DNA of 64,000 nucleotides from an uncultured Gemmatimonadales bacterium (GTDB lineage: Bacteria > Gemmatimonadota > Gemmatimonadetes > Gemmatimonadales > GWC2-71-9): assembly GCA_963844035.1 (NCBI GenBank), contig CAWJMT010000003.1, positions 64,001 through 128,000 on the forward strand, written 5' to 3'. The notes beneath the pieces are model-generated. The model was not told where the DNA came from. It saw only the letters and a list, made by a program, of their open reading frames with translations, and ran no database searches. Positions 4,498 to 28,093 of the stretch are shown here, in pieces. Made by a program: the position numbers and the translations under genes. Position 1 is the first letter of the stretch. Every line of letters begins with the position of its first letter.

Positions 4498-5892
4498 ATG
4501 ACCTTGTTTGGAATGGGTGATCCCCGCCCGATTCACTTCATGGGTATTGGAGGCGCGGGGATGAGTGGCTTGGCGCAGCTGGCCAAGCATCAGGGTGTAC
4601 CGATTACCGGATGTGACAACGACCCATCGGGCGCCGCCGATTTGGCAGCCTCGGGGGTGGAGATCTGGCGGGGCCACGATCCTGGGCACGTGGCGGGAGC
4701 TCGTGCCGTAGTGGTGACCGCTGCAGTCGCGGGGCAGCACCCAGAACTAGAACGAGCGCGCGCCCAAGGGATTCCCGTGGTGCGCCGGGCCGACGCCCTC
4801 GGCCAGGCCGTCGCTGGGGGGACCGTGGTGGCGGTGGCCGGGACACACGGCAAGACGACCACCACGGTGATGATTACGGAAGCATTGGCGGCCGCCAGGC
4901 GAAATCCCACGGGACTCGCCGGCGGCCGCGTCGCTCAATGGGGCGGAAACGCCCGGATCGGCGGGCACGATCTCTACGTCGTGGAAGCGGACGAATACGA
5001 CCGCGCGTTCCTGTCGCTCGCGCCGGCGGTAGCGGTGATCAACAACGTGGAGGCGGACCATCTCGAGTGTTACGGATCGCTGGAGGCGCTCGAGCAGGCG
5101 TTCGCCGAGTTCGCGGGGCGGGCGACGCGCGTGATCGTGGGCGCGGACGACGCGGGCGCCCTGCGGGTCGCGGCGGTCCTGAAGGCTCCGGTGTGGCGGG
5201 TCGGCCTCGCGGATGACGCGGAGATCCGGATCAGCGCGGTGGAGCTCGCGCCCCAGGAATCCCGCGCGCAGGTGCGGCTGCCGGACGGCGCGGAGGTGAC
5301 GCTGCGGCTGCGCGTGCCCGGGCTGCACAATGTGCGCAATGCGGCGGCGGCGCTCGCGGTGACTCACGCGCTACAGGCGGACCGCGCGGCGGCGCTCACC
5401 GCGCTGGAGCGGTTCGGCGGCGTGGGGCGGCGGTTCGAGCGGTTGGGAGAGGCGGGCGGCGTGATGATCGTGGACGACTACGCGCACCACCCGACCGAAG
5501 TGCGCGCGACGCTCGCGGCGGCACGGCAAGCGTTCCCACGGCGCCGGCTCGTGGCGGTGTTTCAGCCGCACCTGTTTTCCCGTACCGCGTCGCACGGGGA
5601 AGCGTTGGGCCAGGCGCTGGCGGCGGCCGACGTCGTCGTGGTCGCGCCGATCTACGCGTCACGCGAGCAGCCGATGCCCGGCGTGACAGCGGAGATCGTC
5701 GCGCGCGGTGCGATCCGCGCCGGCGCCGCGACGACCGCGGTGCGCGAGCGCGCGAACGTGACCGACCGGGTGGCGCGGCTGGTGCAGCCGGGCGATGTAG
5801 TGTTCACGCTGGGCGCGGGCGACATCACGCGAGTCGGGCCGGAGCTGATCGAAAGACTGGGCAAGCGGGAAGGGGGAAGAGGGAAGCGTTGA
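4498..5892 (+). CDS. murC: UDP-MurNAc:L-Ala ligase
   Basis: Intact 464 aa ORF with HFMGIGGAGMSGLA, GTHGKTTT, EADEYD, DDYAHHPTE and FQPHLFSRT. Confidence 0.97.
   Translation: MTLFGMGDPRPIHFMGIGGAGMSGLAQLAKHQGVPITGCDNDPSGAADLAASGVEIWRGHDPGHVAGARAVVVTAAVAGQHPELERARAQGIPVVRRADALGQAVAGGTVVAVAGTHGKTTTTVMITEALAAARRNPTGLAGGRVAQWGGNARIGGHDLYVVEADEYDRAFLSLAPAVAVINNVEADHLECYGSLEALEQAFAEFAGRATRVIVGADDAGALRVAAVLKAPVWRVGLADDAEIRISAVELAPQESRAQVRLPDGAEVTLRLRVPGLHNVRNAAAALAVTHALQADRAAALTALERFGGVGRRFERLGEAGGVMIVDDYAHHPTEVRATLAAARQAFPRRRLVAVFQPHLFSRTASHGEALGQALAAADVVVVAPIYASREQPMPGVTAEIVARGAIRAGAATTAVRERANVTDRVARLVQPGDVVFTLGAGDITRVGPELIERLGKREGGRGKR
5859..5887 (+). repeat. Four-unit GGGAAGN-type array forming the murC C-terminus (GKREGGRGKR)
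   Basis: GGGCAAGC GGGAAGG GGGAAGA GGGAAGC read directly. Confidence 0.8.
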
Positions 5893-6632
5893 AGAAGAAG
5901 CGCCAGAGCCGACGCGCGCGACGGAGCGCGGGAGTGGTCGCGGCCGCGGTATTGACCGCGGGGTTGCTGTATGTCGGTGTGCCGCGCGTGCTCGAGCGCA
6001 TCCCGTTCTTCCGCGTGCGGCAGATCGATCTCGTCGGCGTGAAGTACCTGGCGCCCGACGCGCTGATCGCGGCGTTGCGGCTGCCGGCCGGCGCGAGCGT
6101 GTTTGGTGATACGCAGCTGCTGGCCGACCGGCTGAAAGGCGTTACCGGCGTGGCCGACGCCGCCGTGGTCCGGCGGCTGCCCGCGACGCTCGAGGTGAGG
6201 GTGAACGAAGTGGAGCCGGCCGCGTTCGTCCCCGCGACGCGCGGCGGCCGGCTGGTCGCGGTCGATGCCGCGGCGCGCCCGCTGCCCTTTGATCCCGAGC
6301 GTACCGGCCTGGATCTCCCGGTGGTCGCCAGTGCGGATGCCGGCGTGGTGGGGGTGCTCGCGGTGGTGCAGGCGGTGGACCCGGCGCTGTTTCAGCGCAT
6401 CACCGGTGCCCGCGGCTCGAAGCGCGGCGACGTCCTGCTCGAGCTCGACGCCCATCGCGTGCTGCTGCGGCCCGATGCGGGGCCGGACGTGATCCGCGCG
6501 GTGGCGCTCGTGGGACAGGATCTGACCTCCGTGGGACGCCCCTATGCGGAGCTCGACGCGCGTTTCGCCGGACAGGTCGTGGTGCGGCAGCGTGCGGTGC
6601 GGACCGCGGTGCGGACCAAGGGAGGGGTGTGA
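5889..6632 (+). CDS. ftsQ: Cell division protein FtsQ/DivIB
   Basis: Basic N-terminus, single TM, POTRA-like RRLPATLEVRVNE and ELDARF; precedes ftsA. Confidence 0.88.
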   Translation: MKKKRQSRRARRSAGVVAAAVLTAGLLYVGVPRVLERIPFFRVRQIDLVGVKYLAPDALIAALRLPAGASVFGDTQLLADRLKGVTGVADAAVVRRLPATLEVRVNEVEPAAFVPATRGGRLVAVDAAARPLPFDPERTGLDLPVVASADAGVVGVLAVVQAVDPALFQRITGARGSKRGDVLLELDAHRVLLRPDAGPDVIRAVALVGQDLTSVGRPYAELDARFAGQVVVRQRAVRTAVRTKGGV

Positions 6633-7885
6633 CGCGGGAGCGGCGGATCGTCGCGGGGCTGGACTTCGGAAGCACCAAGACGTGCGCCGTGATCGCCGAA
6701 GTGGTGGGCGATTGGCCGCGCGCGCCGATCGCCAAGATACTCGGCGTGGGGCTCGCGAAGAACGGCGGTGTGCGGCGCGGCATGGTGCGCGACATCGACG
6801 AAACGACGCGCTCGGTGGTGGCGGCGATGCGCGACGCCGAACGCATGGCGGGCGTCAAAGTCTCCGGGCTGACGTGCGGCGTGGCGGGTGAGCATGTGGC
6901 TGCCCAGCCTTCGACCGGTGTCGTGGCCGTCGGAAGCGACGAGATCACCGCGACGGACGTCGCGCGGGTGAACGAAGTGGCCCGCGCGGTTTCCTTGGCG
7001 AAGGACAGCGAGCTGCTGCACGACATCCCGCAGGAGTACCAGGTCGATCAGCAGCGGGGGATCTCCGATCCGATCGGCATGATGGGCACCCGGCTCGAGG
7101 TGGAGATGTACCTCGTGACGGTGCAGGCGACGGCCGCGCAGAACGTGCGCAAGAGCGTGCAGCGGGCGGGGTACCGCGTGGCGGACCTGGTGCTCGAGCC
7201 GCTCGCGGCTTCATACGCGGTGCTGACGGACGACGAGACGGAGCTGGGCGTCGGGCTGGTGGACGTGGGCGGCGGATCCACGGGGGTCGCGGTCTTTCAT
7301 GACGGAAAGATCCGGCACATCGCGACGATCCAGTATGCCGGGACGCAGGTCACCACCGACCTGGTGCAGGTGCTGGGCGTGACGCAGACCGACGGCGAGC
7401 GTCTCAAGGAGCGGCAGGGCGTGGCGTATGCGCCGCTCGTGGATTCGTCGGAGATGATCGACCTGCCGTCCACGCCCGGGCAGGGTCCGCGCCAGGTGGC
7501 GCGCGAGATGTTGTCGACCATTATCCACGACCGGCTCCACGAGATCTTCGACCTCGTGGGGCGCGAGTTCGAGCGGGCGGGGTTCGGCGGCCAGCGGCTG
7601 CCGGCCGGTGTGGTGTTGACCGGCGGCACGACCCACATGCCGGGCATGGTCGAGCTGGCCCGCGAGTCGTTCGCACTGCCGGTGCGGGCCGGAGTTCCCG
7701 AGCAAGGCATCTCGGGGTTGGTGGACAGCGTGCAGGCGCCCCGCTATGCGGTGGCGACGGGTTTGGTGCTGTATGCGGCGCATCAGCTGGCGCAGGGCGG
7801 CCCGGTGAGCGGGCCGGTGACAGGAAGCGGCGGCGTAGATAAAGTGTTCGGACCGCTCAAACGGTGGCTCCAGGACTTCTTCTGA
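6629..7885 (+). CDS. ftsA: Cell division protein FtsA
   Basis: GLDFGSTKT, VDVGGGST and GVVLTGG actin-like motifs. Confidence 0.97.
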   Translation: MTRERRIVAGLDFGSTKTCAVIAEVVGDWPRAPIAKILGVGLAKNGGVRRGMVRDIDETTRSVVAAMRDAERMAGVKVSGLTCGVAGEHVAAQPSTGVVAVGSDEITATDVARVNEVARAVSLAKDSELLHDIPQEYQVDQQRGISDPIGMMGTRLEVEMYLVTVQATAAQNVRKSVQRAGYRVADLVLEPLAASYAVLTDDETELGVGLVDVGGGSTGVAVFHDGKIRHIATIQYAGTQVTTDLVQVLGVTQTDGERLKERQGVAYAPLVDSSEMIDLPSTPGQGPRQVAREMLSTIIHDRLHEIFDLVGREFERAGFGGQRLPAGVVLTGGTTHMPGMVELARESFALPVRAGVPEQGISGLVDSVQAPRYAVATGLVLYAAHQLAQGGPVSGPVTGSGGVDKVFGPLKRWLQDFF

Positions 7886-7901
7886 TCGACCCGAGGGAAC
7901 C

Positions 7902-9068
7902 ATGATCTTCGAACTCGAAGAAAGCGTCTCGCAGAACGCGCGCATGAAGGTCGTCGGCATCGGCGGAGGCGGGGGCAACGCGCTCAACCGCATGGTCGAT
8001 GAGGGGCTCCCTGGCGTCGAGTTCATTTCCGTCAACACCGACGCGCAGGCGTTGCTCACCAACAAGTCGGACGTGAAGGTGCAGATCGGCAAGAAGCTCA
8101 CGCGCGGCCTGGGCGCCGGCGCCCGGCCCGAGATCGGCCGCCAGGCGATCGAGGAGAACCGCGACGAGGTGCTGCACGCGCTGCACGGCGCCGATCTGGT
8201 GTTCGTCACTTGCGGGATGGGCGGCGGTACCGGCACGGGCGCGTCGCCGATCATTGCGCAGCTGGCCCGCGATATCGGCGCGCTCACCATCGGCATCGTT
8301 ACCAAGCCGTTCCTGTTCGAGGGACGCAAGCGGATGCGCCAGGCCGAAATGGGCATCGCCGAGATGAAGAAGCACGTGGACACGATGGTGGTGGTGCCGA
8401 ACGAGCGGCTGCTGGCCGTGGTCGGGAAGGGGATCCCGTTCCAGGATGCCCTGAAGAAGGCCGACGACGTGCTGCTGCACGCCACCCAGGGGATCGCCAC
8501 ACTCATCTCCGTCACCGGAATCGTGAACGTCGACTTCGCGGACGTCCGCACGGTAATGCAGAGCGGCGGGTCGGCGATCATGGGGACGGGGACCGGGCGC
8601 GGCGAGAACCGGGCCATGGAAGCGGTGCAGCAGGCGATTTCGAGCCCGCTGCTCGACAACGTCTCCATCACGGGCGCCACGGGAGTGCTGATCAACATCA
8701 CCGGCGGCGAAGATCTCACCCTGGGCGAGGTGACGCAGATCTCCGACGTCGTCAAGGACGCCGCGGGCGAAGAGGCGGAAATCATCTTCGGGACCGTGAG
8801 CGATCCCGCCATGCACGGCGAGATCCGCGTCACCGTGATCGCCACGGGCTTCGACAAGCTGCCCGCGACCACGGATGCGAGCGGCCGGGCGGCGCCCGGC
8901 GTGCTGCCGTTCCGCGAGCGCGCGGCGCGGCCGACGCCCGGCCCCGTGCCCGGGTACGTGAAGCCGGCCGAGACAGGCGGAGTCACCAAGCGTCCGGTGG
9001 CGCAGCCGCCGGTCGCCGACGTCAACGAGCTCGAGATTCCCACCTTCATCCGGCGCCAGATGGACTGA
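7902..9068 (+). CDS. ftsZ: Cell division GTPase FtsZ
   Basis: GGGTGTG tubulin signature, NVDFADV and C-terminal LEIPTFIRRQMD. Confidence 0.99.
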   Translation: MIFELEESVSQNARMKVVGIGGGGGNALNRMVDEGLPGVEFISVNTDAQALLTNKSDVKVQIGKKLTRGLGAGARPEIGRQAIEENRDEVLHALHGADLVFVTCGMGGGTGTGASPIIAQLARDIGALTIGIVTKPFLFEGRKRMRQAEMGIAEMKKHVDTMVVVPNERLLAVVGKGIPFQDALKKADDVLLHATQGIATLISVTGIVNVDFADVRTVMQSGGSAIMGTGTGRGENRAMEAVQQAISSPLLDNVSITGATGVLINITGGEDLTLGEVTQISDVVKDAAGEEAEIIFGTVSDPAMHGEIRVTVIATGFDKLPATTDASGRAAPGVLPFRERAARPTPGPVPGYVKPAETGGVTKRPVAQPPVADVNELEIPTFIRRQMD

Positions 9069-10345
9069 TGGCCTGGCGACCCAGCCACTACGTGGCGACC
9101 GCAGCGCTGGCCGCCGCCGGATTGGTCTGGGCCGCGCGGGACGCGTGGCCCGGGCGGCGTCCCCTCGTGGCGCCGCCGATTCGCGTGGCCAACGCCTACG
9201 TCGAGTACGAGCGGGCGTTGGGGCGCTCTGAGACGTTCTCCGATCTCCTGGCGCATGGCGGCATCGTGGGGCACGATCGCAACGCGCTGCTCGCCGCGGC
9301 CACCGACCTTCCGGTGCGCCGGCTGCGCCCGGGCCTCGTTTTCCATTTCCGGCGGTTGCACACCGACAGCGTGGCGGACCGGGTGACCGTACGCGTTTCC
9401 CCGGAGCGGCGGGTGCGTCTCTCCCGTGACGACCCCGGCTGGCGCCAGGTAACCGAAGCGATCCCGTGGTCGCTCACGCGCATGCGGGTGACGGGAACGA
9501 TCGGGACGTCGCTGTACGATGCGTTGGACAAGGCCGTGCCCGACGCCGTGCTGCCGCTGGGCGAGCGGCGCAGCCTCGCGTGGGCGATCGCCGAGGTATA
9601 CGACTGGCAGGTGGACTTCACGCGCGACGTCCACCCGGGCGACCGGTTCCGCGTGTTGTTCGAGCGGCTCGAGTCACCCGAGGGCGAATACCGCTTCGGC
9701 CGCGTGCTCGCCGCCGAGGTGCACGTGGCTCGGGTGCCGGCGTACGCGTTCTCCTTCGCCGCCGACGCGTCGGAGCCCGCGAGCTTCTACGACGAGCGCG
9801 GCCGCTCGCTCAAACGCGCGTTCCTCCGGGCGCCGCTCCAGTTTCGCCGTGTCTCGAGCGGTTTCGGAGCGCGCTACCACCCGCTGCTGCACGTGTGGCG
9901 CACGCATGAAGGCATCGACTTCGCCGCCCCGTATGGCGCGCCGGTGCGTGCCACGGCGGACGGCAGTGTGGCGACGCTGGGGCGCGGCGACCCCGGGTAC
10001 GGCAACCTGATCGAGCTGCGCCACGCGAACGGCATCCGCACGCGCTACGGCCACCTGTCGGGGTTCGCGCGCGGCCTGCGAGTGGGCGACCGGGTGCAGC
10101 AGGGCGAGACGATCGGCTACGTCGGCTCGACCGGGTTATCCACCGGGCCTCATCTCCATTACGAGTTTCTCGTGAACGGCCGGCCGGCCAATCCGCGGCG
10201 CAAGGACATGGGTGCGGGTACGCCCGTCCCCAAGAGTCTCAGCGCCGCCTACGACTCTGTGCGGTTCCACCTGCTCGCCGATCTCGAGACACAGTCTACG
10301 GTCACGCCCACCGCGTCTCCGACCGTCGCCGCGCGCGACGACTAA
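9068..10345 (+). CDS. M23-family peptidoglycan endopeptidase (MepM/Csd3-like)
   Basis: ATG overlaps the ftsZ stop; HEGID, YGHLS and STGPHLHYE zinc motifs. Confidence 0.9.
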   Translation: MAWRPSHYVATAALAAAGLVWAARDAWPGRRPLVAPPIRVANAYVEYERALGRSETFSDLLAHGGIVGHDRNALLAAATDLPVRRLRPGLVFHFRRLHTDSVADRVTVRVSPERRVRLSRDDPGWRQVTEAIPWSLTRMRVTGTIGTSLYDALDKAVPDAVLPLGERRSLAWAIAEVYDWQVDFTRDVHPGDRFRVLFERLESPEGEYRFGRVLAAEVHVARVPAYAFSFAADASEPASFYDERGRSLKRAFLRAPLQFRRVSSGFGARYHPLLHVWRTHEGIDFAAPYGAPVRATADGSVATLGRGDPGYGNLIELRHANGIRTRYGHLSGFARGLRVGDRVQQGETIGYVGSTGLSTGPHLHYEFLVNGRPANPRRKDMGAGTPVPKSLSAAYDSVRFHLLADLETQSTVTPTASPTVAARDD

Positions 10346-10410
10346 TGCCGTTCCAACCTCGTCCGTCTCGGCCTACGGTTGCCCACCTCGTAGGGTTGGA
10401 ACGGCACTAG
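10342..10410. repeat. Palindromic MITE/REP-like element with 17-bp terminal inverted repeats (one mismatch)
   Basis: CTAATGCCGTTCCAACC ... GGTTGGAACGGCACTAG. Confidence 0.65.
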
Positions 10411-10423
10411 CTTTTTCACCGGT

Positions 10424-11137
10424 ATGGATCTGTATCCCGCCGTCGACGTGCAGGGCGGGCGCGTCGTGCGCTTGCGCCAGGGCGTCGCGGACCAGTCGAC
10501 CGCCTACGCCGACGACCCCGTCGCCGTGGCACAGCAGTTCGGGCGCGACGGGGCTCGCTGGGTTCACTTTGTGGACCTGGACCGCGCCTTCGGGCGCGGC
10601 GACAACCGCGCGGTCGCGCGCGCCTTCCTGGCCGGCATCACCGTGCCGGTGCAGGTCGGGGGCGGCCTCCGCAGCGCCGAGGCCATCGAAGAGATGCTCG
10701 ACTGGGGCGCCACCCGCGTCGTGATCGGCACCAAAGCGGCGACCGATCCCGCGCTGGTAGGGGAACTGCTCGCGCGCCACGGGCCCGACCGCCTCGCCGT
10801 CGGCATCGACGCCAAGGAGGGCCAAGTCGCCGTGCGCGGCTGGACCGAAGTGTTTGATCTCACCGCCCTGCAGCTCGCCGAGCGGGTGTTCGCCCAGGGG
10901 GCGCGCACGGTCATCTACACTGATGTGGCGCGCGACGGGATGCTCACGGGCCCGGATGTCGCGGGGGCGCGGGCCCTCGCGGACCTGGGGTTGAGCGTTA
11001 TCGCGTCGGGCGGGGTCTCGTCGCTCGACGATCTCCGCGCGGTGCGCGCGGCCGGGCTCGCGGGTGCGATCATCGGCCGGGCGCTGTACGAAGGCCGGTT
11101 CACGCTCCCCGAAGCACTGGCATGCGTCGCCACCTGA
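10424..11137 (+). CDS. hisA: ProFAR isomerase HisA
   Basis: YPAVDVQGGRVVRL, QVGGGLRS, YTDVARDGMLTGPD, ASGGVSSLDD and IIGRALY. Confidence 0.95.
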   Translation: MDLYPAVDVQGGRVVRLRQGVADQSTAYADDPVAVAQQFGRDGARWVHFVDLDRAFGRGDNRAVARAFLAGITVPVQVGGGLRSAEAIEEMLDWGATRVVIGTKAATDPALVGELLARHGPDRLAVGIDAKEGQVAVRGWTEVFDLTALQLAERVFAQGARTVIYTDVARDGMLTGPDVAGARALADLGLSVIASGGVSSLDDLRAVRAAGLAGAIIGRALYEGRFTLPEALACVAT

Positions 11138-12910
11138 CGTGGGGACTCGCATTACTGCGAATCACGGGGTGCGCTGCGCTGCTGGTCCTGCTGTGGAATC
11201 CGATTGCCTCCCGCCTGCTCCCCGGCACCGACCCGCCGCTCGTGCTGCTCGACGCTTCGCTCAGCATGGCCGGGCATGGGGGCCGGTGGCGTGAGGCGCT
11301 GGACAGCGCTCGCTCCCTCGCGGGCGGAGGGCGGGGTGGAGTGATCTGGCGGTTCGGCGACCAGGTCGCCGCCTTCGATTCGGGCGCCCCCTCAGATGGA
11401 TCCAGCCGGCTCGGTCCGGCAATCGCGGCGGCCGCCGCCCGCGGCGGACCGATCGCGGTGGTCACGGACGGTGATGTCAGTGACATCGAGACCATCGCTC
11501 CGGACTTGCTGCGCTCGCTACGTATCGTCACCCTCGAACGTCCGGCGTTTTACGATGCCTTCATTGCGACGGTGGAGGGAACGCACCGGATCGCCGCAAC
11601 GGATACGCTGCTCCTGAAGGTCTCGTACGGAGCTACTGGGAAGAGGGAAGAGGGAAGAGGGAAGGGTAAGGCGTTGCTCGTGGTGACATCGGAGGGGCGG
11701 CGACTAGCCTTCCGCGAGGTGTCTCTCCCCGACAGCGGTATCGTTGCCACCGAGATCACGCTTCCCGCTTCCCGCTTCCCTCTTCCCGGTTGGCACGTTC
11801 TCGATGTTCGCTTGCAAGCCGCTCCCGACCCCGAACCGCGAGATGACGGGCGCCTATTCCTGGTGGAAGTGAACCCGACGCCGTCGGTGGTCGTGCTCGC
11901 GAGCCCGCCCGACTGGGACCTGCGCTTCTTCGCGCGCACCCTGGCAGACGTGGCGCGGGTGCCGGTGACGGTGTTCGTCGAGACCGAGCCAGGGAATCCG
12001 GCGCGCGGCCACTGGCGGGACGCGGCCTCGTTGACCGCGGCACCAGCGGGCGCCGTCGAGCGCGCGGTAGCGGGGGCGCGGCTCATCGTCGAGGGCGGTG
12101 ATCCCGCGGGATTCGGGCGGGTGGCCGCGGCGGCCGATCGGGCGCGCCTGCGCTGGCCGACCGTGGGCGGGCTCGCCGGGGAGTGGTACGTGGACCCGCC
12201 GCCGCCTTCGCCCTTCGCCGCCGGGCTCGGCGGATTGGCGTGGGATTCCCTGCCGCCGGCGGTGGGAGTGATCCCGACGGTCGCCGGACAGCACCACGCT
12301 CGTCGCGTTGACGGCGCGGCTCGCGCGGCGCGGGGCCGCGCGCCCGGTGGTGCTCTTGTCGGAGCGCGGGGGCTCGCGTCACGCGCAGGTCGCGGCGGTG
12401 GGGCTGTACCGCTGGGCGTTTCGCGGCGGCGCGAGCGCGGAAGCCTATCGGGCGCTGGTGGCAGAGATCGCGAATTGGCTCTTGGGGGAAGAGGGAAGAG
12501 GGAAGAGGGAAGGGGTGACGCCGGTGGCGCGTGTGGTTGCGAACGGGCTGCCCGTGGTGTGGCGCTGGACCGGTGCGGGTCCGCCGCACGACTTGACGCT
12601 GACCCTACGCTCGAGCGGCGGCGAACGGCGCGACACGCTGCGGTTCGACGCCGCGGGCGAGGCGGCGCTCGTCGTGCCGCCCGCCGTCTATCACTACACA
12701 ATTGACGGAGGACCGGAACGCGGCATGATCGCGGTCGAGACCTACTCCGATGAGTGGCGCCCTGCCGCAGCCGCGCTCGCGCCGCAGGCCGGAGTGCCGG
12801 CGGGACGCTTCGCGACGGTGAGCATGCGGGACCATTGGTGGCTGTTCGCGCTCGCGATCGCCGCATTCGTGGCGGAGTGGGTGTGGCGCCGCCGGCTGGG
12901 GTTGCCCTGA
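11122..12910 (+). CDS. Membrane-anchored protein with vWA-like domain (frameshift near 12290)
   Basis: N-terminal TM, LLDASLSM (DxSxS MIDAS-like), VVTDG, and C-terminal TM AEWVWRRRLGLP. Confidence 0.7.
11638..11666 (+). repeat. (GGGAAGA)3 GGGAAGG array inside CDS (GKREEGRGK)
   Basis: Read directly. Confidence 0.9.
11760..11787 (-). repeat. Inverted copy of the heptamer array inside the same CDS (LPASRFPLP)
   Basis: GCTTCCC x3 then TCTTCCC on the + strand. Confidence 0.9.
12486..12515 (+). repeat. (GGGAAGA)3 GGGAAGG array inside CDS (GEEGRGKREG)
   Basis: Read directly. Confidence 0.9.
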
Positions 12911-13777: not shown

Positions 13778-13807
13778 GGGGACGAGGGACGGGGGAAGGG
13801 GGACGGG
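13778..13807 (+). repeat. Four-unit GGGA(C/A)GN array in the ftsY-recG spacer
   Basis: GGGACGA GGGACGG GGGAAGG GGGACGG then GTAC. Confidence 0.85.
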
Positions 13808-13817
13808 TACGTGCCTA

Positions 13818-15889: not shown

Positions 15890-15950
15890 GGTGTCAGGTG
15901 TCAGGTGTCGAGTGCAGCTCTGACACCTGGCACCTGACACCTGACACCTG
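15890..15950. repeat. Inverted heptamer arrays (GGTGTCA)3 / (TGACACC)4 able to form a hairpin
   Basis: Read directly between the recG stop and the asnS -35; one unit in each arm has a single mismatch. Confidence 0.88.
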
Positions 15951-17297: not shown

Positions 17298-17339
17298 GAA
17301 CCGCCTTCCCCCGTCCGTTCCTTTGCTGCACTATCCCCA

Positions 17340-18551: not shown

Positions 18552-18557
18552 CGGGAA

Positions 18558-18607
18558 GGCGGGTGGGCGGGCAGGCGGGTAGCAGGTTGACCAGCCGCCT
18601 ACCTGTC
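18558..18607. repeat. GGCGGGYR octamer array with partial complement between convergent rtcB and mazG
   Basis: GGCGGGTG GGCGGGCA GGCGGGTA ... CCGCCTACCTG. Confidence 0.65.
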
Positions 18608-19353
18608 TCCTTTCACCTCATCCCACAACGCATCCAGCTCCGCCAGGCTCGCCCGTCCCAGCTCCAGCCCGCGCTCCTGCGCCAGGCGTCTCCACCTCCT
18701 CAAACCGTCCTCTGAACTTCTCGTTCGCCCGCTCGAGCGCGGCGCCGGGGTTGATCGAGAGTTTGCGAGCAAGATTCACCACGGCGAACAGCAGATCGCC
18801 GATCTCATCCTCGATCGCGTCATGTTGTCCGTTGCCCGTTGCCACTTCGACCTCAGCGATCTCTTCCTTCACCTTGTCCAGCGGTCCCTTGCGCGTCGGG
18901 CCAGTCGAATCCCACACCAGCGGCGCGCTCTTGAAGTCGGTAGGCCATGAGCAGCGGGGGCAGGGTGGGAGGTAGCCCCGCGAGCGTCTTACCCTTCCCG
19001 CTTCCCTCTTCCCGCTTCCCCAGTTCCCAGGATGCAGGTTTCTCCCCGCCCCCGAACAGGTGGGGATGGCGCCGCCACATCTTCGTCTCGAGCGCGTGCG
19101 TGACCGCCTCGGCGTCGAGCGTGCCGCGCTCCTCGCCGATCACGATCTGAAACGCGAGGTGCAGCAGCAGGTCGCCGAGCTCGTCGCGCACCTCGCCGGG
19201 ATCGTCTCGACGGATCGCCTGATCGAGCTCGAGCACCTCTTCGACGAGGTAGGGGCGCAGGGTCGCAGGGGTCTGCGCGCCGTCCCACGGGCACCGCGCG
19301 CGCAGGTCGCGCACGAGTGCGACGGCACGTCCAAGCGCTGAATCGCCTTGCAT
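18599..19353 (-). CDS. mazG: Nucleoside triphosphate pyrophosphohydrolase MazG (frameshifted)
   Basis: CPWDGAQT, ELGDLL, RRHPHLF, GFDWP, EIGDLLFAVVN and end ELDALWDEVKGDR*. Confidence 0.93.
18992..19021 (-). repeat. Four-unit GGGAAGN array inside mazG (GKREEGSGK)
   Basis: Minus strand reads GGGAAGC GGGAAGA GGGAAGC GGGAAGG GTAAG. Confidence 0.88.
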
Positions 19354-19399: not shown

Positions 19400-20477
19400 T
19401 GATCAGCGGGCGCACCAGCCGTGCGTGGGTCGAACGTCGACCTGGCTGCCGTAGTCGAGAACGCCCGCACCGTAGCACGAGTCGCCGGCACGCGGCTCCT
19501 CCCGGTGGTGAAGGCGAACGCCTACGGGGTAGGAGCCGTCGCTGTGTCTAGGGCCCTCGAAGCGCTCGACCCCTGGGGCTACGGCGTCGCGACGGTGGAC
19601 GAGGGGACCGAGCTGCGGGCCGCCGGGGTCACGCGCCCCGTGGTGGTATTCATGCCGGGGCAGCCGGCATTGTTCGACCAGTTCGAGCGCTTCCAGCTGA
19701 CACCGGTTCTCGGAGATGCCGACGCGATCGCACAGTGGACCGCCCGCGGGACGCGGGGCTTCCATTTGGAGATCGACACCGGGATGGGGCGGTCGGGGGT
19801 TCGCTGGGACGAGATGGCGCGGATCCGCGACGTCACCGGCACCCCCTCCCTCGAAGGCTGTTACACGCAGTTCCATTCGGCCGAACGGTCCGACGGCTCG
19901 CTCGAGCGACAAGCCGAGCGGTTCCTGCAGGCCGTCAGCCAGCTGCCGCGGCGGCCGGCCCTGCTGCACGTGGCCAATAGCGCGGCGGCGATGCGCGGCC
20001 CGCGACTACGGGTTCGATCTGATCCGCCCCGGCGTGTTCCTGTACGGCGGCTCGGCCGGGCCAGGACTGGCGGCACCCCGGCCGGTGGTCAGCGTGCGGG
20101 CGCGAGTGCTGGCGGTGCGGCGTGTGGCGGCCGGCGAAAGCGTGAGCTACGGTGCCCTCTGGACGGCCCGGGCGGCGACGCGGGTGGCGACACTCGGGAT
20201 CGGGTACGCGGACGGCGTGCGGCGGTCGCTCGGCATTTCGGGGCGCGGGTCTGTGCTGTTGAGCGGAGCGCGCTGCCCGATCGTCGGGGCGGTGACGATG
20301 GACCTGACGATGGTCGAGATCGGCGACCGGCCCGTGAAGGTGGGCGATGTCGCCACGCTGATCGGCGAGGCCGACGGCGACCGCATCAGTCTCGAGGAAT
20401 ACGCGGCCTGGGGAGACGAGCTGCACCGCGAGGTTCTCACGTCGCTCGGGCCGCGGCTGCCGCGAGTGTACGACTAG
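19399..20477 (+). CDS. alr: Alanine racemase (frameshifted)
   Basis: VVKANAYG PLP-lysine motif, DTGMGRSG, RPGVFLYG, VSYG, GYADG and VTMD. Confidence 0.95.
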
Positions 20478-20509
20478 CAGGCGGGCAGGCGGCAGGCGGG
20501 TAGGCGGCA
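20478..20509 (+). repeat. CAGGCGG(G) 7/8-mer array after the alr stop
   Basis: CAGGCGGG CAGGCGG CAGGCGGG TAGGCGG CA. Confidence 0.75.
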
Positions 20510-20653
20510 CAGCGAGGCGGCAGCGGGGTTCTAGGAGTGGCTCGGGAAGGGCAGGTCGATCTTGCGGGGGATCCGGACATGAGCGCGGAGCAAGCGAGCG
20601 GGTGCGGGATTTGACGGGCCGGGCGAGGCGCGCGATACGCGGCGCTGAGCCTC

Positions 20654-21901
20654 GTGCTCGTCCTGACGGCGTGCGCGGAGAAGTTGACCGCTCCGGGGTA
20701 CTGCCCCGATTTCTGCACCAGCAGCTCGCTCACCATGACCGACACCATCCTCCCCGGCGCGATCACCGAGGACTCCGCCTTCAGCCGGCCGAACGGGTAT
20801 GTGAATCCGGACGACGCCGGCTACCTGCTCGCGGTATCCACTCCGGAGCGGGAAAGCCGCCCGATTTTCCGGTTCCCCGCGGTCTCGAATCGACTCGGCA
20901 TTGGCACGGACACGACGACCGCGGTGCTCGTCGGCGCCGACTCCGCGCGCTTGGCGATTACCATCACGCGCCGCGACACGGCCGTCGACCTGACCGTGTC
21001 GCTGTACGCGCTGCCGCTCACCATCGACACGACGACCGCGTTCCACGACCTGGATGGCGCCTTCGCCGGCCCCGCCGTGCGCACCGTGAATCTGGACTCC
21101 CTGCTGGCCAAATCGGCCGCCCCGTGTGCGGGTTTTCCCTGCTACTTCGACCCGGTCACCCACGATAGCGCGTTCTTGGATAAGGCGAACGACCGGGTGT
21201 TCCTGAGGATGGCGCTCGACACCCTCCAGGTGCCCCTCGTGCTGGGGGACACGGGCAAAGTCGCCTTCGGGATTCGCGTCAGCGGGAACGGCCCGACGAG
21301 CACCGCGATCGGCGCCCGGGAGCGCCAAGGCCTGGGTCCATTGTTCACGTGGTACGTGCGGATGGACTCGGCCAGCCAGAAGATCATCCACGTCTCGCGG
21401 CCGGCGGCCCTATCCTCCTTCGACAGCTTCGTGTTCGACCCGCCGAGCCTGCCGATCGGCTCCGACCTGGTGATCGGAGGGGTGCCCTCCGTCCGCACGA
21501 TCATGCGGATTGCGCTGCCCCGCGCCATCCGCGACTCGTCGCGCATCGTGCGCGCCACCCTCGAGTTCATCGCCGCCGCCCAGCTCGTGGGCACCGCCGC
21601 CGACGCGTTTCCGGTCATCGCGGCGCCGGTGCTCGCGGACTTCGGGGCCAAATCGCCGCTCGCGCCCGCGTTCAACGACACGACCCAGTTCGCCATCGCG
21701 CCGATCGACACGGTGCTCATCGACGTGACCAGCGTGCTCACCTACTGGACACTCGATAACCGGCGGCCCACCACGCTCGTGCTGCAGCAGATTCCCGAGG
21801 GAACGAACTTCGCGGAGCTGCGGTTGCACAGCTCCGCCAGCGTGGGCCAGGGTCCCCGGCTGCGCATCACGTACGCGCCGCGCTACCCGATCTCGCCGTG
21901 A
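20654..21901 (+). CDS. Hypothetical lipoprotein (true start probably near 20602, obscured by a frameshift)
   Basis: Lipobox-like LTAC, beta-rich 415 aa ORF, overlaps the next start. Confidence 0.7.
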   Translation: MLVLTACAEKLTAPGYCPDFCTSSSLTMTDTILPGAITEDSAFSRPNGYVNPDDAGYLLAVSTPERESRPIFRFPAVSNRLGIGTDTTTAVLVGADSARLAITITRRDTAVDLTVSLYALPLTIDTTTAFHDLDGAFAGPAVRTVNLDSLLAKSAAPCAGFPCYFDPVTHDSAFLDKANDRVFLRMALDTLQVPLVLGDTGKVAFGIRVSGNGPTSTAIGARERQGLGPLFTWYVRMDSASQKIIHVSRPAALSSFDSFVFDPPSLPIGSDLVIGGVPSVRTIMRIALPRAIRDSSRIVRATLEFIAAAQLVGTAADAFPVIAAPVLADFGAKSPLAPAFNDTTQFAIAPIDTVLIDVTSVLTYWTLDNRRPTTLVLQQIPEGTNFAELRLHSSASVGQGPRLRITYAPRYPISP

Positions 21902-23004
21902 TGCCGTTCCGCCGCGTCACCTTGATCGCCGCCTTCCTGCTCGCCGGGGCGCGCGCCGTCCAGGCGCAGGATTCGCAGTTCGGCATCCGCGGGGGCGGAA
22001 CGCCCGGGCGGCCTGAGAGCGTGCGCGCCCGCTCGACCGGGGGCGCGTTCGCGGCGTTCGACGCCGCGTCGGCCGTCGCGGACGTCTCGATCGCCGAGGC
22101 GCGGGTGCTCACGGCGACGACGATGGGCGCGTCCTATTTCCGCCAGGTGACCCTGCCGAACGCCACGACCGACCTGACCAGCACGCGGTTTCCGCTCCTG
22201 ACCCTGGTCGGGGCGGCGTCGAGCCGCGTGCGGATCGCCGGCGGGTACAGCACCTACCTGGAGGACAGCTACGTCATCACCACGCTCGACAGTGCGGTGG
22301 TGCGCGGCGACATGGTCCGGTTTATCGACCAGTCCGCGAGCGACGGCGGGAGCAGCGATCTGCGGATCTCGACCGCGGTGCGGGTCACCCCGACGTTCAC
22401 GCTCGGCGTCGGTCTGCACGCGATCACCGGCTCCGCACGCATCAGCATGACGCGCACCTTCTTCAATCCGGACTACGCCACCGTGCAGGATTCGCAGACG
22501 GTGCGCCAATCCGGGTTCGGTGTGTCGGCGAGCGCCCTGTTCCGCATGTCCCCGGCTCTCACGATCGTCGCGTTCGGCCGCGCGGACGGTCACACGAAGA
22601 AGAAGATCGACGAAGTCCGGGTGGCTGATACCGACCTCCCGAACATGGTCGGCGGTGCGGTACGGCTGATCCTGGGTCCGCTGGTGCGCGCGGCCGGATC
22701 GGTCGCATGGCGCGAGTGGACCAGCGTGAACGCCCCCGACACCTACAACACCCTCAACTACACGGCCGGCCTGGAGCTCGGGTCGGAGGGAAACGGGCTC
22801 CGCATCGGCGGGCGCTATGGCCAGCTGCCGTTCGGCCCGGGAGGGAGCGCGCCCACGGAATGGGGAGTGGCTGCCGGTTTCGGGCGCGTCATCGCGCGCG
22901 GGCATGCCGTCCTCGACTTCGGGGCCGAGCGGGTGGTCCGCGAAGGCACGACGCTGCACGAAGGGATCTGGACCCTGCTGTTCGGCCTCAGCATCCGGCA
23001 ATGA
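21898..23004 (+). CDS. Putative outer-membrane beta-barrel protein (FadL/OmpP1-like)
   Basis: Signal peptide AVQA-Q, alternating hydrophobic strands, N-terminal RARSTGGA segment. Confidence 0.6.
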   Translation: MMPFRRVTLIAAFLLAGARAVQAQDSQFGIRGGGTPGRPESVRARSTGGAFAAFDAASAVADVSIAEARVLTATTMGASYFRQVTLPNATTDLTSTRFPLLTLVGAASSRVRIAGGYSTYLEDSYVITTLDSAVVRGDMVRFIDQSASDGGSSDLRISTAVRVTPTFTLGVGLHAITGSARISMTRTFFNPDYATVQDSQTVRQSGFGVSASALFRMSPALTIVAFGRADGHTKKKIDEVRVADTDLPNMVGGAVRLILGPLVRAAGSVAWREWTSVNAPDTYNTLNYTAGLELGSEGNGLRIGGRYGQLPFGPGGSAPTEWGVAAGFGRVIARGHAVLDFGAERVVREGTTLHEGIWTLLFGLSIRQ

Positions 23005-24235
23005 ACGTTTTCTTCCATACCTTCGGCTGCCGGGCGAACCAGTACGATACGGAAGTGGTACGGCAGGCCCTCGCGGACCGCGGGGCGGCGGTGGTGGACG
23101 ATCCGGCCGCGGCCGATGTCGCGGTGGTCAACTCCTGCACCGTCACCGAGGAGAGCGAGATCAAGCTGCGGCGCTTCGTGCGCCGGCTGGCGCGCCGCGC
23201 CGACGGCCGGCCGCTCGAGACCGTCGTCATGGGCTGCGCCGCGGCGCGCGATGACGGCACGCTGCGCGCCCTCCCTTCCGTACGGGCCGTGGTTGCGGGT
23301 GCCGACACGGCGGCGGTGCTCTCGGCGGTCGGGTTCGCCGTGCCGCGCGTGGACCCGGTGCTGCGGCGCTTCGGTTCGAACCACCGCGGCTGGCTCAAGA
23401 TCCAGGACGGTTGCGACGAGCACTGCAGCTTCTGCGCGACCACGCTCGCCCGCGGCGCGAACCGGTCGCGCCCGATCGCGGAGCTGGTGCAAGAGGCAAA
23501 GGCACTCGCGCAGCATCATGCAGAGATCGTGCTGACGGGAGTCCATATCGGGACGTATGGCCAAGACGGGAAGGGGGAAGAGGGAAGGGGGAAGGGTACT
23601 CCCTCGGCGAGCTGCTCGAAGCCCTCATTTCTGCCGTGCCCGATGTTCGGTTCCGCCTTTCATCCATCGAAGCCACCGAGATCGACGACCGCATTGCGCA
23701 CCTCTTGATCGAAGAGCCACGGCGGCTCGCGCCCTACCTGCACGCGCCGCTGCAATCGGGATCGAACCGGGTGCTGCGCCGCATGGGGCGGCACTGGTAC
23801 ACGGCCGAGTCGTACCGCGCGCGGCTGGAATGGCTCGCGGCGCGGCTTCCGGTGTTCGGGCTCGGCGCCGATGTGATCGCGGGATTCCCCGGTGAGACCG
23901 ATGCCGACCACCAGGACACGATGATGCTCCTCCGGGCGCTGCCGTTCACCGCGCTGCACGTGTTTCCCTATAGCCCGCGGCCCGACACGGCTGCGACCCG
24001 CTTGGGGGACGACGTGCCGCCGGGGGCGATCCGGGTGCGGGCGGCGGAGCTGCGGACGCTCGGGGACGCCAAGGCGCGGGCCTATCGGGCCAGCCGCGTG
24101 GGCGCGATGGCCGACGGCGTCGCGAGCGGCCGCGTGGCGGGGCGGGTGGACGTGCTCACCGAGGACTATCTCTCGGTGTACATTCCCGTCGAGCACTGGG
24201 ATGGCGCGCCCCGATTCCCGGTGAAGGTGGCCTAG
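23001..24235 (+). CDS. mtaB: tRNA methylthiotransferase, MtaB-like (frameshift near 23598)
   Basis: TFGCRANQYD, NSCTVT, LKIQDGCDEHCSFC, LSSIE and HVFPYSPR. Confidence 0.85.
23568..23596 (+). repeat. Four-unit GGGAAGN array inside mtaB (GKGEEGRGKG)
   Basis: GGGAAGG GGGAAGA GGGAAGG GGGAAGG then GTAC, right after the GVHIGTYGQD codons. Confidence 0.88.
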
Positions 24236-24236
24236 T

Positions 24237-25554
24237 ATGCCCCGCGTGTACATCGAGACCTACGGCTGTCAGATGAACGTCGCCGACTCCGAGCTGATGC
24301 TCGGGTTGCTCGGCGCGAACGGGTACGAGCGCATCGACGATCCCGCCCTCGCGGACGTGATGCTCGTGAACACCTGCGCGGTGCGCGACCACGCGGAGCA
24401 GCGCGTGCTCGGCCGGGTGGGCGAGCTGAAGCGCCACAAGCGCGCCGGCGACGTGCTGGGCGTGGTGGGATGCATGGCGCAGCGGCTCGGCCCCAAGCTG
24501 CTCGAGCGCGTGCCGCAGGTGGATCTCGTCATCGGCCCCGACGGCTACCGCAACCTCCCCGAATTGATCGCCCGTGCGCAGAGCGGCACCCGGGCCGCGG
24601 ACGTGGAGTTCCGCGGCTGGGAGCACTACGAGGACGTGCCCGCGGCGCGCGGCGACGCGGCCTCCGCGTTCGTCACGGTGCAGCGCGGCTGCGATTATCG
24701 GTGCACCTTCTGCATTGTTCCGATGACGCGCGGGCCGGAGCGGAGCCGCATGTTGGCCGACGTGGTGCGCGAGGTGACCTCCGTCGCCGCGCGCGGTGCG
24801 ACGGAGGTGACGCTCCTTGGGCAGACGGTCAATAGTTATCACGACGGCACGCACGATTTCGCCGATCTGCTGCGCGCCGTCGGTGCCGTGGCGGGGATCC
24901 GGCGCGTGCGCTTCACATCGCCGTACCCCACCGACTTCACCGCCCGGGTGCTGGCCGCCATGGCCGAGACGCCCACCGTGTGCGAGCACGTCCACCTGCC
25001 GGTCCAGAGCGGCTCGAACCGCACCCTCAAGCGGATGCTGCGTCGCTACACGCGCGAGCGCTATCTCGAGGTGGTCGCGGAGCTGCGGGCGGCCATCCCG
25101 GCGATCGCGTTCTCGACCGATCTCATCGTGGGGTTCCCCGGCGAGACCGAGGACGACTTCGCGGAGACGATGTCGCTCGTCGAAGCCGCAGGGTTCGACG
25201 ACGCGTACACATTCAAGTTCTCGCCCCGCGACGGCACCCCGGCGCTGCGACTCCCGGACACCGTGCCGGACGACGTGGCCTCCGAGCGCCTCGCGCGGCT
25301 CATCGCGGTGGTGCGCGGCGTGGGGCGCGTCAAGAACGCGGCGCTCGTCGGCACCACGCACGAGGTGCTGGTCGAAGGACCGGCGAAGCGCGGCGAGCTG
25401 CTGCAGTCGCGCACCCGCACCAACAAGATCGCGCTGCTCGCGGGGCCGGTGGAGTGGATCGGGACCTACCGCACGCGTGCGGTTCAGCGGCACGACCGGC
25501 TCGACGTTCACCGCCGTACCGCTCGAAACGCCACAGGAGGTTGCCGCATGGTGA
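24237..25554 (+). CDS. miaB: tRNA-i6A37 methylthiotransferase MiaB (frameshift near 25475)
   Basis: ETYGCQMN, NTCAVR, GCDYRCTFC and GQTVNSY; TRAM domain finishes in another frame with RVRFSGTTGSTFTAVP...AW*. Confidence 0.93.
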
Positions 25555-25832
25555 CGAACGTGACGCTCGAGGTGGTGCAGCGCGAGTACCTCCAGCTGCG
25601 CGAGCGGCTCCCGAAGTTCTGCGGCTGCGCGACCTGCCACGGCGACGTGACGGTGTACGCGCTGAACCGCCTGGCGCCGCACTACGTGTCCACGCGGGAA
25701 GGCGAAGTGTTGACCGAGCTGTCGCTCGGCAGCGACCAGGAGAAGGCCAAGCTCGACGTGGCATTGCTCGAAGCGTTCCGCAAAGTGGGTCTCGCGCCCC
25801 GCTGCGGCGCCAAGCCGGTGCAGCTCCTCTAG
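25548..25832 (+). CDS. ComFB (late competence development) family protein
   Basis: 94 aa, NVTLEVV...CGCATCHGDVTVYALNRLAPHYV...PRC. Confidence 0.85.
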   Translation: MVTNVTLEVVQREYLQLRERLPKFCGCATCHGDVTVYALNRLAPHYVSTREGEVLTELSLGSDQEKAKLDVALLEAFRKVGLAPRCGAKPVQLL

Positions 25833-25849
25833 ACCGCTAAGGCGGCCCG

Positions 25850-28093
25850 GTGCGGCCGCCGATCCTGTTCCTCACAATTGGTTTTGCGCTAGGCCTCGCC
25901 CTTGGGGAAGGGGGACGGGGGATGGGGGACGGGTACGTCGTAGGGCCCGTCCTGCTTACCGCGGCGCTTCTATTTCGGCGCGCGCCGGTGGGCGCGGGCG
26001 TGGGGATCATGGGGGTGGCGGGCGTCCTGTGGGGATCGGCAGCGGTCAGCGCTCGCGCGGCGACCTGCGCCGGCCGCTGGAAGGACGGTAGCACCCGCGC
26101 TGCCATCGTACGCCTGTTGGATCCGGCGTCGGAGGGCGGCACAGTGGTGGAGGCGGAGGTCGTCCGCGGGAAAGAGTGCGGCGGCGGATTGCGGGTTCGT
26201 TGGCCGGACCATCCGGCGGCTGCTGGCGGCACGACATGGGTGGTGGCGGGACGCTGGGCGGCGCTCGGGGAAGGGCGGGGCGTGCTGGTCGCGCGGCGGG
26301 TGAAGCTGCTCGACCCCGTGCCGCGCGGGCGCGGTGCGCTTGCGCGGCCGGGTGATGACGCGCGCCACGGAGTTGTTCGGAAGCCGCGCGCGGCTGGTGC
26401 AAGCCCTCGTGATCGCCCCGGGTGTGGCGCTCGAGCCTGACGTGCGGGAGCGGTACGCGCGCTCGGGACTTGCCCACCTCCTCTCTATCTCCGGGTCTCC
26501 ACGTGGGGTTTCTCGCCGTGTGGCTGGGCGCCGCGCTCGGCCTGATGGGCGCACGCGGGCCGGCGCGTCTGTGGGCTACGTCCGCGGTCGTGATCGGCTA
26601 CATCTGGCTGCTCGGGTTTCCGGCGCCGGCCACGCGCTCGGGAGTGATGCTGGTGCTCGACGCGGTGGCACGCTGGCGCGAGCGGGTGGTCGCACCCCGC
26701 GGCGTGCTCAGCGTGACCGCCCTGTTGCTGTTACTTGCGGACCCCTGGGCGCTGCAATCGGTGGGTGCGTGGCTGTCACTCGGCGCCGTCGCCGCGGTGA
26801 TCTGGGGCGCGCGCGCCGCTGCGGACACTGCCGCGCTTCGCGCGGGTGGTCGTCCCGTCGCATCGCCGCGACGCTGTTCACGGCGCCGATCACCGCGCTC
26901 GCGTTCGGCACGGTCGCGCCGATCGGCGTGGCCGCCAACCTGGTCGCCATCCCAATCGCCGGGATCGCCGTGCCGGGGCTCGTGGTTGCGCTCGTCACAT
27001 CGTGGTTCGCACCACCGCTCGCGGGCTGCTCGCGGCGGGCTCGGGTCTCGGGCTTGCGCTGCTCGACGTGGTGGCGCGCGCCGCCGCCGCCGTTCCGGGC
27101 GGGCACGTGGTGACGGTGGCAGGCTGGAGTGCGGCTGGGGTCTGGCTCGCCGTCGCGTTGGTGGCATGGTGGCTGTGGCATTCGCCGCGGCGCCGCTGGG
27201 TGATCGTGGGACGCGTGGCTTTTGTGGCATGCGGCGTGGCATGGCTCTCGGTCGCGGGCGCTAGCGGCTCCGTCCCTCGACGCATGTCGCTGTGTCACAG
27301 TACATTTTCTCGACGTCGGCCAGGGAGACGCCGGGCTGCTGCGCACGCCCGCGGGCCGGTGGATCGTGATCGACGGGGGGCCGCTGACCCCTCAGGGTGA
27401 TGCGGGAACGCGCGTGGTCGTGCCGTTCCTGCGTCGCATGGGGGTCGAGCGGGTGGCGGTGGTGGTCGCGACCCACGGCGACGCCGATCACCTGGGGGGC
27501 ATTCCGGCGGTCGTGACGGCGTTCGCGCCCGACCTGGTGCTCGAGCCGGGCGAGCCGCTGGGCCGGCCGCACTATCTGCGGTTCCTGGCAACCGTCGAGG
27601 CGTCGCGAGCGCGCTACCGCGCGGCGCGCGCCGGCGACCGGATCGTGCTCGACGGCGTGACGCTCGAGGTCTTGAGTCCGGACAGCGCGCTGTTCGCGCT
27701 TCCCCTCGACGTGAACGAGCATGGCGTGGTGCTGCGCGTGACCTACGGCGACGTGCGGCTGCTGTTTCAGGCCGACGCCGGGTTGCCGGTGGAGCAGCAT
27801 CTCGCGGGCCAGGTGGGGCGGGTGGAGCTGCTCAAGGTGGGGCACCATGGCTCCCGCACCGCCACCTCGGACGCGTGGCTCGTCGGAGCTCGCGCCGCGC
27901 CAGGCGGTGATCAGCGTGGGGCGGCACAACAACTACGGACACCCCGCGCCCGAAGTCGTGGCGCGGTTGGCGCGGCACAGGATCGCGATATTGGAGAACC
28001 GATCGCGACGGAACTGTCACCTTTACCACGAACGGACAACGTGAACAGACAGACATCAGAGGTCAGACATCAGGTGTCAGGCGTCAGAACTGA
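25850..28093 (+). CDS. comEC: DNA uptake channel ComEC/Rec2 (several frameshifts)
   Basis: AHLLSISG(LH), FLDVGQGDA, THGDADHLGG, KVGHHGS, NNYGHP and RTDRDGTVTFTTNG ending at TGA 28091-28093. Confidence 0.9.
25904..25933 (+). repeat. Four-unit GGGANGG array inside the comEC 5' end (GEGGRGMGDG)
   Basis: GGGAAGG GGGACGG GGGATGG GGGACGG then GTAC. Confidence 0.85.
28050..28091 (+). repeat. Six-unit CAGNNNT heptamer array forming the comEC C-terminal tail
   Basis: CAGACAT CAGAGGT CAGACAT CAGGTGT CAGGCGT CAGAACT. Confidence 0.8.

Follow-up and report, generated by a model that had tools for sequence, protein, structure and literature searches.

A dispersed four-unit heptamer array in Gemmatimonadales genes and its plausible link to a four-helix-bundle gene cassette

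How does a G-rich repeat of 30 nt come to lie within unrelated housekeeping genes, and what keeps it there? We investigated this question in a 64,000-nt stretch of the genome of an uncultured Gemmatimonadales bacterium (assembly GCA_963844035.1, contig CAWJMT010000003.1, positions 64,001 to 128,000; hereafter the window), in which a first-pass annotation had reported eight copies of an array of four G3-led heptamers. All eight copies are present, and the element can be written as GGGA[AC]G[AGC] (GGGAMGV) repeated four times and usually followed by G(T). With a probability of roughly 55%, we favor a reading in which these arrays are the arms of a cassette built around a four-helix-bundle gene (PF05635/TIGR02436), which have spread as solo arms or gene-less pairs through conversion-like overwriting and have been filtered by the reading frame.

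The array in the window and across genomes

The genome of the window (G000; 3.47 Mb, 84% complete) was compared with a set of 61 genomes, among them the 100%-complete G003 of the same genus; genomes used in the genus comparisons are 72-78% identical to each other. The genome-wide count that had been proposed as a check bore out the family: a search with a 29-nt consensus, allowing up to four mismatches, found 82 copies in G000 (36, 23, 10, 8 and 5 copies at 0, 1, 2, 3 and 4 mismatches), a few of which are duplicates on near-identical contigs, versus none in three genomes simulated with a 5th-order Markov model. At five mismatches the comparison was 13 in G000 versus 9 summed over the three null genomes. 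Exact arrays in G000 comprised 39 with four units, 26 with three and 30 with two, and none exceeded four units, while longer arrays exist in G004 and G005. The exact 27-nt pattern was found in 18 of the 61 genomes, including five of the six other genus members, and unit spectra differed by genome (GGGAAGC accounts for 70% in G004 and GGGACGG for 42% in G006). Most copies (58 of 82) had no inverted partner downstream within 150 nt and were classed as solo arms; convergent inverted pairs were found at 11638/11759 in the window and at other places. A separate abundant family of G-rich heptamers was seen in G034, which the backward-read pattern matches 55 + 55 times and the forward pattern not at all.

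The window copies, with gene names taken from Pfam, are as follows.

5859..5888, plus strand: four-unit GGGAMGV array with a degenerate first unit, encoding MurC C-terminal residues (ORF 4498-5892) at the murC-ftsQ junction
11638..11667, plus strand: G-rich left arm, which forms an in-frame inverted pair with the next copy inside a large ORF that starts at 11122; peptide GKREEGRGKG
11759..11787, minus strand: right arm of this pair, C-rich on the sense strand; peptide LPASRFPLP
12486..12515, plus strand: solo array, distal within the gene of the large ORF, which is frameshifted near 12,280 in the assembly
13779..13808, plus strand: intergenic solo array directly 3' of the ftsY stop codon, before recG
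18991..19020, minus strand: mazG array covering a helix end and linker after WE..K.E, length unchanged
23568..23597, plus strand: array in an MtaB-like methylthiotransferase gene, in the loop after HIGxYG, with a 1-nt frame break at its 5' edge
25904..25934, plus strand: ComEC array near the N-terminus, between hydrophobic segments (ORF from 25850)

As first described, five copies (11638, 13778, 18992, 23568 and 25904) end in GGGTA, the copies at 13778 and 25904 have GGGGACGGGTACGT in common, in seven copies the G-rich strand is that of the neighboring genes, and the 31-64 kb region is free of the element, with no copy found from 25,934 to 64,000. The placement of seven copies in coding sequence stood for murC, the large ORF (three times), mazG and comEC; the copy at 13778 is intergenic (ftsY/recG), and the mtaB copy falls exactly on a frame break. 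The large ORF had no Pfam and no NCBIfam match at E<=1e-15, which leaves its label of 'vWA-like' unconfirmed. RNA of the 11638/11759 pair is predicted to fold into a long hairpin (-92.2 kcal/mol; z = -5.68). The 405-kb contig C3 of G000 has 14 copies, eight of which cluster in a 20-kb stretch (5859-25934 in the window) of conserved housekeeping genes; the average over the genome is about one copy per 42 kb.

The quality of the assembly bears on how these sites are read. Between 12270 and 28100 in the window we counted at least 11 frameshifts relative to G004 orthologs (large ORF, ftsY, recG three times, asnS twice, alr twice, mtaB and the next methylthiotransferase gene), and mazG and comEC are also broken there, while 4.5-12 kb is clean. 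These frameshifts are likely sequencing errors. The same is probable for the mtaB break, where 86 nt separate the anchors in G000 and the distance is a multiple of three in all 14 relatives with both anchors (22 examined). G000 also has regions that are duplicated at 80-94% identity (C1 vs C17, C3:14050 vs C35:285090, C5:205395 vs C21, and the C9/C30/C1 four-helix-bundle loci), a sign that the bin may include contigs from sister strains or species. Such frameshifts and near-identical contigs are what would make the arrays themselves look like artefacts of assembly or sequencing. For the family this idea is refuted, and we give it next to no credence, since elsewhere in the genus the same sites carry arrays that are in frame; for single-base details such as the mtaB break, errors are likely.

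Site by site, the array at the end of murC is present in G006, with none in G001, G003 and G004. At 11638, arrays occur in G001, G004 (21 nt longer) and G006 (a GGGAAAC variant), while G003 is 6 nt shorter and has none. At 12486, G006 has an array, G004 is of equal length without one, and G003 is 3 nt shorter without one. The ftsY-recG array is also found in G002 and is absent from G003 and G004, which are 39-44 nt shorter there. The mazG site is filled in G001, G002, G004 and G005, with variant units in G015 and G017 and a partial array in G016; the mtaB site has in-frame arrays in G001, G002, G005 and G006 (a GGGATGC variant); and the comEC site has arrays in G002 and G006 and variant units in G001 and G004.

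We also examined how often the arrays are coding. In relatives, 35 of 68 classified arrays were internal to long ORFs, which include ValS, DnaG, DnaX, MnmE, Dxr, PdxA, HisF, NadE, MutS2 and FtsK, and arrays were placed in loops, linkers and gene ends. The classifier used in G000 was strict and undercalls coding DNA (257 of 600 random positions called); it placed 18 of all 82 copies in coding DNA and, counting arrays in frame, returned 17 of 69 for GGGAMGV versus 11 of 191 for eight other repeat families and 10 of 42 for unassigned arrays. The Fisher test on coding share used 17/69 versus 11/188, omitting three AGACGCAT arrays and the 42 unassigned arrays (10 in frame). The GGGAMGV family is thus unusually often coding for its repeat class. 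Its unit is free of stop codons on both strands, yet absence of stops is not the whole coding filter, because GGCGGGAA and GGAATGC are also stop-free and less often coding. Solo in-frame copies were G-rich on the sense strand (13/13 in G000; 13/15 in relatives), and sense C-rich copies were mostly the second arm of a pair.

Sequence upkeep and family replacement at shared sites

If the arrays were kept for the peptides that they encode, synonymous positions within them should be no better conserved than elsewhere. We compared orthologs of six window sites, fetched through synteny or protein search, and found that fourfold-degenerate positions were conserved at 62 of 73 inside arrays versus 211 of 497 outside (nominal p = 4e-12, overstated, as are all p-values here, since the genomes are related), at equal amino-acid identity (124/180 inside; 722/1060 outside). 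This result fits conversion among copies or selection on a DNA motif, and not protein-level selection: the arrays are maintained at the DNA level. An earlier count of synonymous sites (100/113 vs 286/620) was set aside as circular, as it took in loci found by the pattern itself. Changes at the variable unit positions 5 and 7 alter the amino acid and track the genome-specific spectra; in a single case, an array lying on two contigs with 91% identity differs at position 7 in each of its four units.

Whether the arrays are insertions, as had been proposed, differs by site. The MazG array is a same-length replacement. In this comparison (25 of 30 sequences anchored) the loop measures 23 aa both with arrays (G000, G002, G004, G005, G015, G016 and G017) and without (G003 and G023), the array spells the W-E..K.E that is conserved in E. 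coli MazG, and it covers a helix end and the lowest-confidence linker of the structural model (residues 111-120; mean pLDDT = 57). A genome of another genus, G021, has a GGCGGGA-type run in the same loop. Net addition was found between ftsY and recG (~40 nt) and elsewhere (+33 and +45 nt), and the MtaB loop is 81-102 nt in four carriers versus 63-84 nt in ten non-carriers. In-frame length differences derived from tblastn are multiples of three by construction and were not counted as evidence.

Other short repeats share the size of the array. A de novo scan of G000 returned 302 arrays of period 7 or 8, which fall into at least eight families whose median lengths span 27-32 nt. Four units were the mode for GGGAMGV (58/87), GGTGTCA (31/50), GGCGGGAR (35/53) and GGCGGTCR (28/50); four was not the mode for GGCGGTTA (three full units) or GACGCTAA. 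Two arrays of other families lie in the window; the asnS name is inferred from OB-fold and class II synthetase domains.

15890..15950, no strand assigned: inverted pair of GGTGTCA heptamers (second family) at the recG-asnS boundary, of the same size class and not listed by the first-pass annotation
18553..18582, plus strand: GGCGGG-type 8-mer array (third family) directly 3' of the rtcB stop codon

We next compared arrays at orthologous sites. Of the 69 arrays taken from five relatives, 54 had anchors on either side in G000 and 15 were dropped, which left 41 sites; 14 of the 54 comparisons were of equal length. The sites in G000 carried the same family in 19 cases, no array in 16, another family in five and both in one, with GGCGGTC, GGTGTCA or GCCATCA arrays as the replacements at these 5-6 sites. 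In one intergenic pair a GGGACG-type array in G006 faces a GGTGTCA-type array in G000 (100 vs 101 nt), and in valS a GGGACG array (G002 and G006) lies opposite a GGCGGTC array in G000 that is 15-18 nt longer. Since different families occupy orthologous sites, the sites behave as slots. Within G000 itself, the regions at C23:48865 and C12:643 are 85% identical, and at the place where one has a GGGAAG array the other has one of GGTGTCA, a family swap within one assembly. In the dnaX linker of G000 (C35:93620-93780), a long degenerate GGGAMGV array is followed by an inverted arm of the GGCGGTC family, where G001 and G002 have a GGGAMGV arm.

These observations bear on whether the arrays are selected G-quadruplex (G4) signals in DNA or mRNA, acting in pausing, termination or R-loops, with purifying selection on four G-tracts and an incidental match to cassette arms. 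Folding of the array into a G4 is possible from its sequence: four intact G3 tracts are present in 74 of the 82 copies, with a mean G4Hunter-type score of 2.0 (custom script), and GGGAATC repeats form G4 in vitro (PMC4692102, in the parts covered). The sense-strand G-richness of solo in-frame copies and the conserved synonymous positions would also be expected. However, the constant unit number reported at first holds as a peak at four for GGGAMGV arrays and is not specific to G3 tracts, and the four-unit mode of families with GG tracts only weakens the G-quadruplex reading, though GG-only units could form weak two-tier G4s. G3 arrays moreover give way to GGCGGTC, GGTGTCA or GCCATCA arrays in the slots, the non-G position A4 is conserved along with G6, and G003 is entirely without arrays. 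We therefore regard a selected G4 signal as improbable; G4 folding is likely a side property of the GGGAMGV family and not the reason for its four-unit size.

A second account is independent polymerase slippage with a general bias toward 7-nt units, with selection leaving arrays in tolerant loops. It is a published hypothesis for heptamer excess (cited in the discussion of PMC4692102, of which parts were covered), and the longer arrays of G004 and G005, including the extra 21 nt in G004 at 11638, speak for it. Slippage would, however, copy local sequence and not one consensus at 82 unrelated sites, and it fails on mixed units, the four-unit cap, inverted pairs and replacement by another genome-wide family. 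The initial view of a dispersed family rather than site-by-site slippage is upheld. As an origin, slippage is strongly disfavored, and we rate it a little below the G4 account; it may explain length changes of existing arrays.

Four-helix-bundle cassettes with matching arms

The first-pass annotation had suggested looking for a four-helix-bundle gene family flanked by the same arrays, and this link exists in relatives. There, GGGAHGV arms flank one clade of PF05635 proteins with a GYALGT motif, which match TIGR02436 and the solved structure 2GSC (E = 1e-19). At 50% identity or more, the clade is found in nine of the 61 genomes, and its closest named relatives are Gemmatimonadales. Where it has GGGAHGV arms, exact matches number 7 in G002, 32 in G004, 38 in G006, 90 in G017, 23 in G025 and 44 in G026, counts that are inflated by overlaps in long arrays; the three clade genomes with other arms have only 2, 2 and 0 (a second G033 copy not included). 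The cassette occupies one convergent site in G002, G006, G017 and G026, four genomes of three genera, and this site is empty in G000 (C31:75089-75102). It lies at other sites in G004, G016 and G025. The flanking genes are protein-coding and not 23S rRNA, and at three loci (L021, L025 and L223) the arms abut the stop codons of both convergent neighbors.

The arrangement is not confined to this clade. G000 has seven PF05635 loci, each between inverted 7- or 8-nt arms of other families, and those units are dispersed as well; three of the seven genes are frameshifted in this assembly, through error or decay (C27:104682-104943, C37:130338 and C1:103422). Among 80 PF05635-like loci across phyla, a 7/8-mer arm was present at 70 and inverted pairs of one unit at 32, versus four control windows with an array. 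G3-type arms occurred at only 24 of the 80, which counts further against a selected G4 signal; two downstream 'arms' in this survey were runs of N, and the three counts are unaffected. G003 has neither arrays nor PF05635.

On the cassette reading, spread would consist of short-tract copying in which host recombination or repair takes an arm as its template, and either an older array or codons that happen to resemble GGGA would seed the process. The protein, which is small, forms pentamers and has no evident catalytic domain, may bind the arm or its transcript. Arrays would then persist wherever a gene tolerates a G/K/R/E or P-rich peptide, and GGGAMGV would reach coding DNA more often by being stop-free on both strands, with a G-rich strand that encodes flexible G/K/R/E peptides. 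What the comparisons show is the layout of arms around the gene, cassette sites that are filled or empty, slots with different families, DNA-level conservation, equal-length replacement in MazG and placement in loops, linkers and gene ends; the copying step and any role of the protein are what we infer.

Several results weigh against this reading. No member of the matching clade was found in G000 (best 37-43% identity; 84% complete) or in G001, G005 and G014, and neither G014 (97% complete, 9 matches) nor G031 (95% complete, 4 matches) has any PF05635 match. Half of the 12 genomes that have at least five matches lack a clade member, and in G041, which has the most matches (132), the sole PF05635 gene lies outside the clade and has a matching arm on a single side. 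Clade and heptamer are not strictly coupled, differing in three of nine. No copying intermediate and no catalytic gene were found, and by eye no target-site duplication was seen between genomes that are only 72-78% identical. MazG and MtaB trees with the loop removed are compatible both with gain in carriers and with decay in G003. Most shared sites could reflect plain inheritance plus selection, and it is equally possible that the arms are a pair of ordinary dispersed repeats which captured the gene or flank it. As to the nuclease or reverse transcriptase that the first-pass annotation had proposed looking for, searches of the 84%-complete G000 found no reverse transcriptase (PF00078) and no GxxExxY nuclease-like gene (PF13366), the RAYT/Y1 families not having been searched for.

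Part of this pattern would also be expected if a domesticated four-helix-bundle protein bound the arrays as a nucleoid or mRNA-binding network, with one repeat family per paralog maintained by selection and little active copying. Consistent with such a network, sites are often inherited across the genus (the 19 of 41 in common), four genomes from three genera retain one cassette at the same locus, and each paralog has its own arm unit. Yet arrays persist in G000, G001, G005 and G014, where no matching gene was found, and a regulatory site is not expected to swap family in place or to occupy arbitrary ValS, DnaG and DnaX loops. We consider this network about as doubtful as the G4 signal, and continue to prefer spread from cassette arms.

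A broader version of the cassette reading, which we put forward only tentatively and hold to be well short of probable, is that four-helix-bundle (S23p/Avd-like) pentamers are the trans-acting part of an undescribed and widespread kind of selfish micro-element. Each paralog would recognize its own ~30-nt arm and drive templated overwriting of slots, including surface loops in essential proteins (ValS, DnaG, DnaX, MnmE and Dxr among them), where competing families would rewrite the peptide without a change of frame.

Relation to known repeats and elements

The first-pass annotation had considered the element possibly a lineage-specific signal, an idea that does not hold, the heptamer class having been described in Xanthomonas and Nostoc (PMC4692102). 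The GGGAATC and GGGGA(C/T)T heptamers of Rehm et al. (2015; PMC4692102) are described, in the parts covered, as having a four-unit mode, inverted pairs, G4 formation in vitro and no known function. They resemble GGGAMGV arrays in the G3-led heptamer with positions 1-4 and 6 conserved, the four-unit mode, mixed units, occurrence on both strands, convergent inverted pairs, copies just 3' of stop codons, sites common to species and G4 potential. In contrast, the unit here is GGGAMGV, and about half of the relatives' copies are ORF-internal (35/68) versus 7-11% intragenic in Xanthomonas; the parts of that paper covered mention neither a four-helix-bundle link nor family swapping. Its supplement, as far as covered, places a four-unit GGGAATC array over the start of XCC0516, a gene unnamed in the parts of the main text covered; XCC0516 is the solved four-helix-bundle pentamer of PDB 2GSC. 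In the literature covered, with subscription papers mostly outside it, we found no paper that connects PF05635 genes with dispersed heptamer arrays, nor any on G4 repeats of Gemmatimonads, and the covered part of MacGregor 2015 (PMC4679880) has no mention of 'four helix'.

Intervening sequences (IVS) of 23S rRNA that bear an S23p/PF05635 ORF are similar in having a small four-helix-bundle gene between inverted heptamer-repeat arms; in Coxiella, the part of the account covered describes heptamer repeats before the S23p ORF (PMC4990558). The cassettes of the relatives differ in lying between protein-coding genes, and the window has gene-less arms only. RNase III excision would not suit coding copies, and only one pair here has a predicted hairpin. 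Rickettsia palindromic elements (RPEs) are likewise selfish-looking DNA translated in frame within unrelated housekeeping proteins (PMC10969869, covered in part). They are, however, palindromic insertions of ~150 bp, whereas GGGAMGV forms 30-nt tandem arrays that are often equal-length replacements. [quoted passage not shown]

Three further comparisons are with repeats of other origin. The short tandemly repeated heptamers of cyanobacteria (STRR) and small dispersed repeats, reportedly treated by Mazel in 1990 and Elhai in 2008, and long heptameric simple sequence repeats (SSRs), reportedly treated by Mrazek in 2007, are said to have 7-nt units, 20-30-nt dispersed copies and an unknown mode of spread; STRR-type repeats would differ from GGGAMGV in phylum and unit. 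REPIN/RAYT systems and MITEs combine a rare gene-bearing element with many short gene-less copies, often in inverted pairs. The likeness to a rare cassette with many gene-less arms is clear, while the differences are tandem-heptamer arms, many coding copies and no associated HUH or DDE transposase (RAYT/Y1 families not having been searched for).

Ever since heptamer repeats that favor four units were described, they have lacked both a mechanism and a function, and PF05635 proteins have a structure and no activity. Here the two meet: the clade and its 30-nt arm are both defined, cassette sites are seen filled and empty, and at some coding sites one family has taken the place of another. If the cassette reading is correct, a long-unexplained class of bacterial repeats would be tied to one gene family, short repeats would repeatedly supply loop sequence to essential enzymes, and the size of four units would be a property of the element rather than of G-quadruplex geometry, with consequences for how bacterial G4-motif enrichment is read. 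The element is thus a member of the known class of four-unit G-rich heptamers, for which DNA-level upkeep and family replacement have good comparative evidence and a four-helix-bundle cassette is, judging from sequence, a plausible driver.

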